From: Eledone cirrhosa
Lineage: Eukaryota
NCBI GenBank assembly: GCA_964016885.1
Contig: OZ024743.1
Span: 272,676,001 to 272,740,000 of the forward strand
DNA: 64,000 bases
Direction of reading: 5' to 3'
Below, piece by piece: positions 1,034-64,000 of the stretch (position 1 is its first letter; every line of letters starts with the position of its first letter). Made by a program: the position numbers and the translations under genes. A model generated the notes under the pieces. That model was not told the DNA's origin. It searched no databases and worked only from the letters and a program-made list of their open reading frames with translations.

Positions 1034-1979
1034 ATATATTTAGAAACACACAGATACATGCGGACACACACATATATACATGAATGCATCCACACCCAAC
1101 TGTGAGTTAAGGGTGCCAACTTCACCGATGTTGCTCAATGAATGACTGGGACAGACCAATTCAGTTGAACTAGACTGAACCAGTATCAGAGTTAAAAATA
1201 CATTATGAAGAGAGAAGAAACATTTAGATATAATTAGTAATAAAATGTATCATACCTAAACTGCTCCTAAATTCCTCGACTACGTAGTTTCGTGGCATAA
1301 ACAAAAACAATATATCAAAGATATAGAGTCGTTGCAAGGGCTGCCGACTTATCAAGAGGATACCTCATTTTACTAGTCTCAAGAACGCGTCTACACGACG
1401 TGAGAAAGAATCCCAAAAGGCGGAGGGGGAGATAGTCACGCGATATAACGGTCGAGAAACAGAGCTAAGCCTCTTATAACCACGAAGAAAATACCACGGA
1501 GGCGGAGGGGGTATTCATATCGAGGCCGTAGAAGAGGTAGTGAAGAAGGCGAGAAGTATGAGTAATGGAAGCTTTTAATTATATCTAAATGTTTCTTCTC
1601 TCTTCATAATGTATTTTTAACTCTGATACTGGTTCAGTCTAGTTCAACTGAATTGGTCTGTCCCAGTCATTCATTGAGCAACATCGGTGAAGTTGGCACC
1701 CTTAACTCACAGTTGGGTGTGGATGCATTCATGTATATATGTGTGTGTCCGCATGTATCTGTGTGTTTCTAAATATATTAATAACTCCCTCTGGTCGAGC
1801 AATCTTTGAAGTGTGGGGACAACTGGAAAGCTTCCATTACTCATACTTCTCGCCTTCTTCACTACCTCTTCTACGGCCTCGATATGAATACCCCCTCCGC
1901 CTCCGTGGTATTTTCTTCGTGGTTATAAGAGGCTTAGCTCTGTTTCTCGACCGTTATATCGCGTGACTATCTCCCCCTC
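1034..1979. repeat. Interleaved inverted duplications (A-B-A'-B') around an HHR-bearing pseudo-LTR
   Basis: 1034-1236 is the reverse complement of 1576-1778; 1423-1575 is the reverse complement of 1827-1979. Confidence 0.9.
1273..1360 (-). ncRNA. Type I hammerhead ribozyme, U3:A8 core variant
   Basis: Minus strand: tcctc TTGATAA gtcggca…tgccac GAAA ctacgtag TC gagga; stem I tcctc/gagga, palindromic stem III, GUC site. Confidence 0.8.
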
Positions 1980-2108
1980 AGCATTAGACTTACTATAGAC
2001 TACCCAAGTAGACACCCCAACCATCGATTACCTGTACTAGACACAGAGCTCTGGTTAGATACTATTAACAACCAAAAACAAATCCTCCATTCCCATTATG
2101 CGAAACCC

Positions 2109-2984
2109 ATGACTTCCAAACATCTGATCCACCGAAACTCGGCCATTTCGGACCATACCAAAATCAACATACTGATTGCGGATTTGGTACGGGTGATGAG
2201 AAATGTGTCCCGCATGTGCAACCCCGAAGAACTAGAGAGACACATACAACACTTCATCCACCGTATGCAGTTCTCTGGCTACAATCAGAGAGATAGAATC
2301 AGAGTGTATAAAGGAGCCAGAACCAAATGGGAAAAAATGGTAAATAATGACATAAATGGGACCTGCCCCTTGTATAGGAGCAAATTTTGGAATAGAATAG
2401 AAAGAACTAGGAACAAGGCCAATAGAATAAACTCATGGTATGATAGCAATAAATACCAGAGTGTAATGTTCATCAATACAACCCCTAGAGGCGAACTAGC
2501 CTACAAATTTAGAAGGGCCCTAAATAAACATAAACTCAATATTAAGATAGTAGAAAGACCAGGTACCTCCGTAAAAACACTTATTAGCAAGACATACCCG
2601 TTCCAAAGACCCTCATGTATAGATAAGAAATGTATAACCTGTAAAATAAGCCCCCATATTAACTGTAAAACTAGCATAAGATGTACTGAAGGACAATGTA
2701 GAAACAAAAATATAGTGTACATAGGTGAGACAGCTCGTAGTATAGGGGAACGAATAAATGAACACTGGCGAGACCTTCAAGATAATAAAGAATCATCTGT
2801 GCTCTACCAACATGCTAAGATAGAACACAGGAGTAGATTAGAGAACATAGAAATAAAAATAGAATCCACACACAGAAAAGATGCAATGTTTAGGCAAATT
2901 ACAGAGGCAGTAAGCATAAAAGAATTACAACCAAAATTAAATAGAAAATATGAGTGGAACAGCAACATCACAACTTACAATTAA
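2109..2984 (+). CDS. PLE polyprotein C-terminal part (RT thumb, Cys linker, GIY-YIG endonuclease); 5' truncated
   Basis: Motifs 'MQFSGY', 'CIDKKCITC', 'IVYIGETARSIGERINEH', 'RQITEAVSIKELQPKLNRKYEW'. Confidence 0.85.
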   Translation: MTSKHLIHRNSAISDHTKINILIADLVRVMRNVSRMCNPEELERHIQHFIHRMQFSGYNQRDRIRVYKGARTKWEKMVNNDINGTCPLYRSKFWNRIERTRNKANRINSWYDSNKYQSVMFINTTPRGELAYKFRRALNKHKLNIKIVERPGTSVKTLISKTYPFQRPSCIDKKCITCKISPHINCKTSIRCTEGQCRNKNIVYIGETARSIGERINEHWRDLQDNKESSVLYQHAKIEHRSRLENIEIKIESTHRKDAMFRQITEAVSIKELQPKLNRKYEWNSNITTYN

Positions 2985-3185
2985 GGACAAAATGAAAACA
3001 CACACAGGACAAAATGAAAACACACACACACATAGAACAAACAACTTACAATTAAGGACAAAATGAAAACACACACAGGACAAAATGAAAACACACACAC
3101 ACATAGAACAAACAACTTACAATTAAGGACAAAATGAAAACACACACAGGACAAAATGAAAACACACACACACATAGAACAAACA
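2972..3185 (+). repeat. About 72-bp tandem repeat, three copies, spanning the PLE stop codon
   Basis: 'aacttacaattaaggacaaaatgaaaacacacacaggacaaaatgaaaacac…atagaacaaac' repeated three times. Confidence 0.9.
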
Positions 3186-3356
3186 ACCAACCAACAATAA
3201 ATAAATAAATAAATAAACAAATAGGTAAATGAACGCAAACACACACAGACACCCGGATGTGGCGCATGCGCAAACCGAGCACACAACACACACACAGAAA
3301 CAAAATGGCGTAGGATAGAAGAAAGGAAAGGCACAGAAACAAAAAAAGGAATCCCC

Positions 3357-3401
3357 AGTCACTGAAGAGGTCACAGAGTGTGTGACGAAAGGACTATGAC
3401 T
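3357..3401 (+). ncRNA. Minimal type I hammerhead ribozyme
   Basis: agtca CTGAAGA g gtcac agagtgt gtgac GAAA ggac TA tgact; stem I agtca/tgact, stem II gtcac/gtgac. Confidence 0.8.
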
Positions 3402-4061
3402 ATATATAAACAACTATCTGGTTGTGGAACCAACCAACCAACCAGAAATGTATAAGTTTGTAGATTTGTAAATTTATAAATTTATAAATATATAATAAAT
3501 CGAAGTGAAAGCAACTGGTGCGTGAGTTTCTTATTGGCAACATGACCCTCCCAATGTATAACAATATATATATATGTTTCTATTCACAATGATATGACAA
3601 GAAAAATCAGAGAATTCAATACACCTATTCCTGTATTGTGTATGTTTCACTGTAAAGTTTTACTCATTCTTGAGAGAGTAGTCTCTGATTTGCAGGCTAC
3701 ATTCTGCTTCTGAAAGGCAATAATTAATTTATATACTGCACCACACCCAAAAATACGCTAGATGCTGATACAGCTCTATTAGTGTTTCGTAGCGTGCGTT
3801 TCTATATTTGGGCACACCATATACTGGTCAACATTCTTACTAGTTATTTGCTTCCAATACCATTAAAAAGCGAGAAGAGAAAATAAATGTAGTAATATGT
3901 CTGATCCATGTGTTTTTTTATTATTAAAATTGCATTGTCAAATGATACGTTGTTAAACTATATATACATATATTGTGTGTGTATATATATATATATATAT
4001 ATATATATATTTATATATATATAAACGTTTACATATATATATACATATATATACATATACG

Positions 4062-4555
4062 TGTTTTGCAACGGGTCACTTTGTGGCTCAATGAAAATTT
4101 AATAAATTAAATAATCAGAGCTATATATCATAAAACATGTCTATAGAATCACAAGATAAAATATATACCATTTCCTCTCCCAATTATCATAATTAACTAT
4201 ATAAAAAATCGAATAGACGAGGCTATAAGAATGAGGCTTTTATGAAGAAATCTCCAACAAATAACCGAAACTAGCCCTTCGCGTCGGCCGCAACGGAATA
4301 TTTATCGAATATTTCGACAGCGCAATCGCCCAGATAGAGTCAATTAAACAGAATTAGGTGTAAAATAACCTAGGAGAAAATAGAATACATTTAAATACCT
4401 CTACCATGGTTTCGTCCGCATTTTGAGATTTCCAATAATTATGTAATAATTATGTAACTCGAGCACCGGATTCATCAGGAGATTTGCTCAGATCTAGACA
4501 CTAAATTTTCCAAAGTGATCGCGCCAAGAATTCATTCAAAATGGCTAAGAATCGT
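4062..4555 (-). mobile_element. Non-coding HHR element family B (retrozyme-like or solo pseudo-LTR), copy 1
   Basis: Homologous to 24517-24948 and 25071-25530; flanked by TA runs; no ORF; contains an HHR. Confidence 0.75.
4397..4483 (-). ncRNA. Type I hammerhead ribozyme with long stem II (family B)
   Basis: atctc CTGATGA atccg…cggac GAAA ccatgg TA gaggt. Confidence 0.75.
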
Positions 4556-62510: not shown

Positions 62511-62558
62511 GGAAATTACATATGAAATTACATATGAAATTACATATGAAATTACATA
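62511..62558 (+). repeat. 12-bp minisatellite (gaaattacatat), four copies
   Basis: Direct reading. Confidence 0.9.
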
Positions 62559-62796
62559 CGTTGAAATCTTTTTGTTCAATGAAGACCGCCATGGCGTTAA
62601 ACCAGAACACAAAAATATACCTAAGAAATATGTAATAAATAAACTTCTTTGATAAGTAACAAAAATAATGGAAAATCAAAATTATATATCCTCACATTTC
62701 TTGACATCTTTACGTAATGGATCATCGCTGTATTGGAACAATAGTCTAATATCTACTAAGCCTGCAGTAAGGTATATATATTTCTCACACTAATTA

Positions 62797-62925
62797 TCGG
62801 CGGGATCTGAGTTCAAATCCCGCCGAGGTTGACTTTGCCTTTCATCCTTACGGGGTCGATAAAATAAAGTACCAGTAATGCACTGGGTATTTGCTGGCCT
62901 TGTGCCTAAAGGTAGAAACAACTAA
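62797..62925 (+). mobile_element. 5'-truncated SINE
   Basis: Runs from the B box to the 3' end. Confidence 0.85.
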
Positions 62926-63191
62926 TTATTTAAATTAATGACCTCATTATAACATTAGCATATAGAAAGCGTTCTTTGATGAACTCTATTATTCAGATTT
63001 CGAAATCAACAGGAGCGAATATATTATTTTATTTCGTTTTCCGTTGCAGGAAAAGAGACGTCTAATTAAGATCTATATTGTGAATTGCTGAAAACCCAAG
63101 GAAATTTAGAATGCTAGAAATAACAGCTAAGCGACAATATTCTGAATATAGAAAATAAAGCTTAATTTCGTTTCAACATTATTTTAACCGG

Positions 63192-63380
63192 TGGGGCGAT
63201 GGATTGGCAGTATCGGTAAAGGGTCGGACGCCATGCTTTGCAGCAAAGAGTTATGGCCCTTTGTGGTCTGAGATCAAATCCCGCCGGTTAACTTTGCCTT
63301 TCATTCTTACGGGTCGATAAAATAAAGTGCCAGTAATAGACTGGGATAATTTTGGCATTGTGCCAAAAGTGGAAACAATT
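63192..63380 (+). mobile_element. SINE with target-site duplication attattttaac
   Basis: Consensus match; duplication near 63178 and 63378. Confidence 0.85.
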
Positions 63381-63531
63381 ATTTTAACTCGCTATAAATC
63401 AAGGAAAACATTTTTGCAAATACCACTGAAAAATGCTTAGTATGAGTGATGAACGTTTACCACATGGACGATTCTAAGGAGTTATATATATATATATATA
63501 TATATATATATATATATATATATATATATAT

Positions 63532-64000
63532 AAAATTAGAATTGGAGCTCTGAAATAGCAATATATATATATGTATATATAATGTATTTTGCAATACACT
63601 TTATGCTTAATTAAAAGCATTTTGAAGACCGTATGCTATTGTTTTAGAGTAGTGACAAGCTCACTTACTTTAATCTCAGCAAACAAGGGGAGATAAGCCG
63701 ACAAGGCCTTGTTTCGCATTTATTGATGCTTATCAAGGCTAACTACTCCCTCCTGTCTACGGAGATCACTGATGTTATATTCTTATAGAATTCTAGTAAA
63801 TAATCAGGAACTGATTATACAGAGCGGTTGCCGGTCAGGCAGAAATTAAAAATTAGAAATTGCAAAATACATTATATATACATCCATATATATATATTGC
63901 TATTTCAGAGCTCCAATTCTAATTTTTAATTTCTGCCTGACCGGAAACCGCTCTGTATAATCACTTCCTGATTATTTACTAGAATTATATAAGAATATAA
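63532..64000. repeat. Interleaved inverted duplications around an HHR pseudo-LTR, running off the window end
   Basis: 63532-63570 versus 63888-63926; 63775-63857 versus 63918-64000. Confidence 0.85.
63696..63740 (-). ncRNA. Type I hammerhead ribozyme, U3:A8 core variant
   Basis: agcc TTGATAA gcat caataa atgc GAAA caaggccttg TC ggct. Confidence 0.85.

Follow-up and report, generated by a model that had tools for sequence, protein, structure and literature searches.

A 64,000-nucleotide stretch of the Eledone cirrhosa genome (GenBank assembly GCA_964016885.1, contig OZ024743.1, positions 272,676,001 to 272,740,000 of the forward strand; hereafter the window, in whose own numbering features are given) raises the question of why 26 hammerhead ribozyme (HHR) motifs should lie so close together. 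The original prediction, made from the letters of the window, described them as an island. We consider it likely that they belong to a swarm of HHRs carried in the terminal repeats of Penelope-like elements (PLEs) and in non-coding retrozymes, copied into (TA)n by the reverse transcriptase (RT) and endonuclease of PLEs.

All 26 listed sites exist as motifs, but not all are whole, as the type I core is intact in 21, variant in four, and broken in one. The core reads CUGANGA in 16 of the 26 and takes the form of the U3-A8 covariant UUGANAA, known from Perreault et al. 2011 and PMC4209133, in five. GAAA, UH, and the stems are present in all 21 motifs with an intact core, each of which has the type I three-stem junction with an open stem I. 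The two motifs of family J (27431 and 30558) have a U4A core, which recurs in sampled copies of that family. Those of family D (12417 and 16476; cores read by eye, as the automatic parse failed or mis-parsed them) combine U4A with A6U and have a stem I of 2 to 3 bp, and one relative carries A6U only. A change at A6 is reported to give low activity (Perreault et al. 2011). The motif at 40127 is broken by a change of GAAA to GCAA, and stem III is damaged at 57571 and 27180. In nearly all 26 motifs stem III is a short palindrome, a signature of motifs that act as dimers. Judged by their structure, these are real hammerhead motifs of known kinds, with predicted cleavage.

Element families and their coding links

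Comparison of the window with itself bore out the fifteen predicted families (A to O). The 26 motifs do not represent as many separate insertions, however: because they include six foldback pairs and one triplet, the number of insertions is about 18. Together, the HHR elements cover about 24 kb, or 38% of the window (hand-drawn limits), and they are listed here in order of position.

1034..1985 (-): retrozyme A (590-bp unit); near-full unit 1034-1575 (-), inverted pieces 1576-1985; HHR 1269-1365 (-) with U3-A8 core and 57-nt stem II
1972..3567 (+): 3' part of PLE-A (family B); RT end and GIY-YIG open reading frame (ORF) 1980-2981; pseudo-long terminal repeat (pseudo-LTR) HHR 3357-3401
3960..4554 (-): diverged copy of retrozyme C; HHR 4397-4483
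12160..16694 (no single strand): PLE-B foldback (family D); decayed RT and endonuclease, 55% to PLE-G; variant HHRs (U4A, A6U) at about 12417-12453 (-) and 16476-16512 (+)
16767..18552 (-): PLE-C (family E), Hydra-type, 5'-truncated; GIY-YIG ORF end 17884-18552; HHR 16798-16868
19115..19560 (no single strand): family F foldback, pseudo-LTR of a Hydra-type PLE; HHRs 19161-19311 (-) and 19344-19494 (+)
19700..20146 (no single strand): family G foldback, pseudo-LTR of PLE-G; minimal HHRs 19857-19891 (-) and 19996-20027 (+)
20170..20733 (-): family H 3' end; HHR 20320-20374
20733..21407 (+): retrozyme I (~424-bp unit); HHR 21091-21129
24513..25700 (-): retrozyme C (649-bp unit), partial tandem and inversion; HHR 24793-24880
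26195..27408 (no single strand): retrozyme I; inverted HHR 26468-26510 (-); head-to-tail pair 26666-26708 (+) and 27179-27221 (+)
27406..30700 (+): family J, decayed near full-length Hydra-type PLE with inverted 5' copy; RT and endonuclease remnants 27809-29601; U4A HHRs 27431-27479 (-) and 30558-30608 (+)
36760..38325 (no single strand): family K foldback; HHRs 36962-37019 (-) and 38213-38270 (+)
38502..40225 (no single strand): family L, 3' part of a Hydra-type PLE; endonuclease remnant 39081-39416 (-); HHR 38556-38600 (-); broken inverted HHR copy at about 40127 (+)
40240..41148 (-): retrozyme I foldback; HHR 40494-40538
41380..42716 (+): family M, long 3' region of a likely Hydra-type PLE; HHR 42537-42614
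57240..57685 (+): family N, old dispersed element; weak HHR 57571-57606; relatives about 72% identical
63532..64000 (-): retrozyme O (319-bp unit); HHR 63696-63740 with U3-A8 core and 12-nt palindromic stem III

The original prediction was right to assign the HHRs to PLE pseudo-LTRs and retrozymes inserted at (TA)n. Its further claim, that about ten families have no linked coding sequence here, holds, in that PLE remnants accompany only families B, D, E, J, and L in the window. Four of the ten others (F, G, H, and M), however, are 5'-truncated ends of PLEs that are coding elsewhere in the genome. Nine of the 15 families (B, D, E, F, G, H, J, L, and M) are thus ends of coding PLEs, and in six (E, F, H, J, L, and M) similarity to PLE-C marks the element as Hydra-type. 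Four (A, C, I, and O) are non-coding tandem retrozymes with units of 319 to 649 bp. Family K is non-coding, and no coding link was found for either N or K.

The ORF of PLE-A in the window is 97.6% identical to an intact 1240-aa ORF elsewhere in the genome. An HHR lies in each terminal repeat of PLE-A, whose 116 scored copies show 95 to 100% identity. PLE-C likewise has an intact ORF elsewhere (821 aa), and the best 150 scored copies, from 65,420 candidates that a first look gave for the PLE-C piece, are 97 to 100% identical. The single ORF of PLE-G contains RVT_1 and GIY-YIG above the Pfam cut-off. PLE-A and PLE-C were assigned an RT and, at the C terminus, a GIY-YIG by motifs and by BLAST to PLE-G; Pfam returned no full-length match for either, and a weak GIY-YIG for the end of PLE-C only. 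The ORFs of PLE-C and of an element at locus L125 share DKT and a CxCX5C linker, also seen in the J remnants, and Hydra-type elements here have an RWT or RWR motif and a length of 3.2 to 5 kb. PLE-A has the linker CX4CxxC, PLE-G has DKG, and the two are 24% identical. A PLE protein homologue occurs in Argonauta (37% identity). Pseudo-LTR partial tandems with HHRs and 5'-truncated inverted copies were found at L007, L009, L010, L012, L122, and L124. An intact Hydra-type PLE lies at L125:4493-9491, with an 844-aa ORF between two HHRs 4.95 kb apart.

The families with coding sequence outside the window differ in how often it was found. Family F, whose HHRs have a U3-A8 core and a 107-nt stem II, occurs as a decayed pseudo-LTR-ORF-pseudo-LTR element of 4.3 kb at L122 and has an endonuclease upstream in L125, and no endonuclease was found within 1.5 kb in six short loci. 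Family G has an RT upstream in 3/7 loci and is full length (3.1 kb, pseudo-LTR-ORF-pseudo-LTR) at L124, family H has a Hydra-type endonuclease upstream in 1/1 locus (L162), and family M has an endonuclease end 1.2 to 1.3 kb upstream in 2/7 loci. Family K, with 2.8 kb between its repeats at L123, is very young, its 40 best matches all rounding to 100%. One relative of family N carries a perfect minimal HHR. Very long stems II (81 to 107 nt) were noted at L052:43-169, L068:2182-2309, L039:8981-9099, and window 19344-19494; two such families are multi-copy.

The tandem units of the retrozymes each contain a type I HHR, their longest ATG ORF spans 41 to 75 aa, and they gave no meaningful tblastn match to PLE probes. 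The retrozyme I motifs at 26666 and 27179 are the only same-strand tandem pair among the 26, and an inverted copy of retrozyme O extends beyond the window end. Predicted circular folds have z-scores of -7.0 (A), -5.5 (O), -4.2 (I), and -1.7 (C). Satellite arrays, which are possible source loci, exist for retrozyme I (~424 bp; L061, C28:110.00-110.01 Mb) and retrozyme C (~650 bp; C4:175.57-175.64 Mb, about 64 kb). A 562-bp non-coding tandem repeat (31484-33481, +; 3.55 units with a (TA)n end) has a weak HHR-like motif in each full unit, with a U3-A8 core at about 31960, 32521, and 33083, a long stem II, and an imperfect stem III. Its relatives at L063, L076, and L133 (71 to 82%) have degenerate cores, and it is possibly a 16th, decayed retrozyme family that had been overlooked.

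Insertion at (TA)n and the proposed template

HHRs elsewhere were collected from 50 preset, evenly spaced 10-kb stretches on 19 contigs (500 kb, 0.017% of the 3.0-Gb genome) with a structural descriptor built on general hammerhead rules (score cut-off ≥9; control, 40 block-wise dinucleotide shuffles). This sample contains 77 HHRs, 15 of them in the L061 array, compared with 2.2 in shuffles, so that ~3% of descriptor matches are expected to be false. As predicted, (TA)n lies on the 3' side: in the window, a TA run follows within 348 nt in 24/24 parsed motifs (one mis-parsed), and (TA)≥5 follows within 350 nt in 52/57 sampled HHRs versus 44% at random positions of the same stretches. The 3' ends abut (TA)n at a median of 136 nt past the cleavage site, the 5' truncation points are variable, and 24/77 sampled HHRs have an inverted partner. 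Retrozymes insert in the same PLE-type manner: their 3' ends lie at (TA)n, they are 5'-truncated and carry inversions, and their insertions exceed one unit as head-to-tail partial tandems.

Retrozyme A is also fused directly to coding PLEs, to PLE-A at 1972-1985 of the window via ~13-nt microhomology and to a PLE-G-like ORF (93.7%) at L084:2090-2165 via short microhomology. Because the remainder of A is absent after PLE-A, the fusion in the window is not a nested insertion. Units of retrozyme A differ by 0.17% within and 1.01% between loci, with minor variants shared 23 of 26 versus 56 of 624, and PLE-A pseudo-LTRs differ by 0.40% within and 1.09% between loci, a pattern that points to one template for each insertion; the primary copies in this test were top matches and therefore carry a selection bias. 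Positions 3 and 8 of the sampled cores are paired in 60/64 cases (C3-G8 in 56, U3-A8 in 4, mismatched in 4), and 19 related copies show compensatory changes at 7 stem II pairs in the presence of a core that is invariant apart from position 7. This pattern suggests selection on the ribozyme.

We hypothesize that the GIY-YIG endonuclease of a PLE nicks (TA)n, and that the RT would then take a TA-like stretch, located downstream of the HHR in the RNA, as its priming site and read back across the cleavage site, in which case it would be copying RNA that is either uncut or re-ligated. The likeliest template would be a circle, formed by dimeric HHR cleavage and ligation and copied more than once round, and template jumps would yield the inversions and the cross-family fusions. 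Such a model of circles copied by PLEs was proposed in PMC4209133 and PMC7229834, where PLEs are presented as a strong candidate for retrozyme mobilisation. Because inverted copies cannot make a same-strand dimer, most copies in the window, with their single or inverted HHRs and palindromic stem III, are probably inactive passengers.

Several results weigh against this reading. Single HHRs fold no better than shuffles (z above -2 in 13/14). Comparison of the retrozyme units with 10 PLE loci, a small part of the genome's PLE families, revealed no homology beyond microsatellite-like bits, so that sequence points to no parent or partner PLE. The fusion junctions number only two and could reflect DNA-level recombination at microhomology. 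Units of retrozyme O depart from the one-template pattern, differing by 1.97% within and 1.44% between loci, with 1 of 14 shared, and identical units could equally arise if a homogeneous tandem source were transcribed into linear RNA. Finally, the density estimate given below depends on 50 stretches, amounting to 0.017% of the genome, and on our own descriptor.

It is possible, though we hold it doubtful, that PLEs mobilise retrozymes from linear multimeric read-through transcripts of tandem arrays, with weak or dispensable HHRs and without the involvement of circles. In its favor, C and I have large arrays, every 3' end lies downstream of the cleavage site as for uncut RNA, the O units are no more alike within an insertion than between loci, and published minimal PLE HHRs are described as cleaving poorly (8/9 Xenopus dimers uncleaved). 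Against linear templates, conservation of cores and stems, accompanied by covariation, extends over dozens of families, the units of some A insertions repeat variants private to their locus (5/5 pieces in L082), and the unit circles of A, O, and I are predicted to be strongly structured. We find it improbable that satellite-like spread at the DNA level (by unequal exchange or DNA circles) or the enzymes of long interspersed elements (LINEs) account for most of the dispersal of the non-coding tandem families, with TA adjacency being secondary. The C array of about 64 kb, a LINE-type RT fragment in the window, and the lack of retrozyme homology to the sampled PLEs are in its favor, but copies are dispersed on many contigs with recurrent TA-abutting 3' ends, their variable 5' truncations and 5' inversions resemble those of coding PLEs, and they are directly fused to two coding PLEs.

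Density, genome-wide load, and motif detection

The claim of an island was not borne out, as the window is a typical sample of a genome-wide HHR swarm. By the descriptor, it has 15 HHRs, compared with a sample mean of 9.9 per 64 kb (resampled median 9; P(≥15) = 0.18, or 0.06 when the L061 array is excluded from resampling), and ten flanking stretches (100 kb around the window) have a similar density of 9 per 100 kb. With a homology search added, whose library came from random stretches only, the counts are 15 in the window and 16.5 per 64 kb (P = 0.51); with a library that favors the window, they are 18 and 17.9 per 64 kb outside. That the window is nonetheless a TA-rich hotspot with HHR elements far above the genome background appears very unlikely to us. 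The excess of 15 over 9.9, the presence of 7/15 within one 10-kb bin, and the correlation, over the stretches, between TA content and HHR count (Spearman 0.43, p = 0.002) point to an island, as does the lopsided comparison of all 26 motifs of the original prediction with tool counts elsewhere (P = 0.04-0.18). Like-for-like comparisons do not (P = 0.18, 0.06, and, homology-augmented, 0.35-0.51); moreover, the TA content of the window is average (520 versus 550 bp per 10 kb), and other single 10-kb stretches carry 4 to 6 HHRs, with 15 in L061.

Extrapolated to the genome, the load is 4.6x10^5 intact-looking HHRs (bootstrap, 2.8-6.8x10^5), or 3.8x10^5 without L061, and about 8x10^5 when decayed copies are included. 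Because the descriptor misses 11/26 window motifs (A, both of D, F, G, and K, 40127, and N), the estimate is a lower bound for intact-looking motifs. The 183 matches outside the window form 42 sequence clusters, and a Chao2 estimate of ~31 families was discarded because it fell below the clusters actually seen. The Sm-alpha repeats of Schistosoma number in the tens of thousands in a much smaller genome, and hence the highest density is not established for the Eledone genome. Published counts, which come from methods different from ours, include up to 120,000 retrozyme copies in axolotl, >6,000 motifs from 16 families in a coral, and about 5,000 in a mussel (PMC7229834); for Schistosoma, coelacanth, and Xenopus, the published numbers of minimal motifs are 2,000 to 9,000 (PMC4209133). 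Our literature search found no paper on hammerheads in cephalopod genomes, although supplements may hold octopod examples or larger counts. A 2026 repeat annotation of Octopus vulgaris has Penelope-like families and 0 mentions of "hammerhead" or "ribozyme" in the accessible part of its text (PMC13282606). We tentatively raise a broader proposal: that Eledone has the largest hammerhead load so far described in an animal (~0.5-0.8 million, dozens of families, one per 4 to 7 kb) and that its retrozymes may be free-living RNA circles without a parent PLE, reverse transcribed by rolling-circle, target-primed copying by several unrelated active PLE enzymes, as the fusion junctions would record.

The descriptor recovers 15/26 motifs in the window versus a shuffle mean of 0.28 (maximum 2), which places them above chance. 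The relaxed core YHGNNRA, suggested with the original prediction, is too loose, giving 12 window matches versus a shuffle mean of 5.1 (maximum 14). Its matches at 4121, 6800, 11594, 42196, 42480, 50566, 50713, 54198, 58177, and 59832 were treated as chance, as was a descriptor match at 37996 (score 8.2). Rfam hammerhead models gave 0 matches in the window at the gathering cut-off, and at E ≤ 10 there was no hammerhead among the matches listed (150 of 250), only microsatellite-driven miRNA noise; these models cover PLE-type minimal motifs poorly. Given the ~50-fold descriptor excess over shuffles, the covariation, and the fixed place in PLE terminal repeats, it is almost inconceivable that AT-rich repetitive DNA produced the motifs by chance, a reading that the Rfam result, the relaxed core, and the weak single-motif folding would favor but that is refuted for at least 21/26 and possible only for the D variant and N.

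Other features of the window include about 15 copies of a ~200-bp dispersed repeat, some of them dimers, one of which interrupts the PLE of family L. We take this repeat to be probably a short interspersed element (SINE), given its resemblance to octopus SINEs. A tRNA search of the window found none. The features are as follows.

5181-5621, 7297-7530, 22559-23301, 39855-40059, 55450-55868, 56339-56544, 59069-59281, 62804-63386: ~200-bp repeat
33700-36340 (+): LINE-type element, decayed; RT (Pfam RVT_1), endonuclease match weak
47399-48997: 1.5-kb (TA)n tract
51236-51451: 216-bp hairpin with (TA)n centre, 92% self-complementary; HHR not detected in the hairpin

Significance and comparison with known systems

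The kinds of elements described here are already known; what is notable is how large their genome-wide load is, together with genomic evidence in favor of retrozymes being mobilised by PLEs, and the interest lies in this load and in the proposed PLE-retrozyme partnership and not in this locus. The genome is a strong test bed: at least two very dissimilar types of PLE are represented by intact, recently active ORFs, and very young retrozyme families occur alongside them. This makes two open questions testable, namely what enzyme moves animal retrozymes and whether the hammerheads of PLEs give rise to circular templates. It also offers dozens of natural hammerhead variants missed by Rfam (U3-A8, U4A, A6U, and stems II of up to 107 nt). 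If transcribed, the load could, speculatively, cut host pre-mRNAs or form dsRNA from foldbacks.

The HHRs resemble the PLE HHRs described in PMC4209133 in that they are type I in both flanking repeats, have a palindromic stem III and the U3-A8 covariant, carry an extra base after A9 in several families, belong to many families per genome, and occur mostly as single or inverted copies from truncated PLEs. Unlike those, many have a longer stem III (6 to 12 nt), some have a stem II of 57 to 107 nt, and they number an estimated 4.6x10^5 rather than about 2,000 to 9,000 per genome, by different descriptors. PLE-C, J, and the L125 element share DKT, the CxCX5C linker, a C-terminal GIY-YIG, a canonical HHR, and insertion at (TA)n with the Hydra clade (Craig et al. 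2021, PMC8557442). They differ from that clade, as described there (RWK, <3 kb, a small number of families), in having RWT or RWR, 3.2 to 5 kb, and long 3' regions, and in being very abundant, with assignment here by motifs and similarity.

The retrozymes are like those of other metazoans (PMC7229834; Li et al. 2026, 10.64898/2026.07.22.740005) in being non-coding, low-GC tandem units with one type I HHR each, in ranging from monomers to long arrays, in having structured predicted circles, and in co-existing with PLEs. Their 590- and 649-bp units exceed the typical 170 to 400 nt and fall within the range of 51 to 972 bp given by Li et al. 2026. The homology between retrozyme and PLE terminal repeats described for Xenopus (Li et al. 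2026) was not matched among our 10 PLE loci. While PLE mobilisation is only proposed in PMC7229834 and Li et al. 2026, as far as their accounts go, the Eledone retrozymes show PLE-type inversions and retrozyme-PLE fusions.

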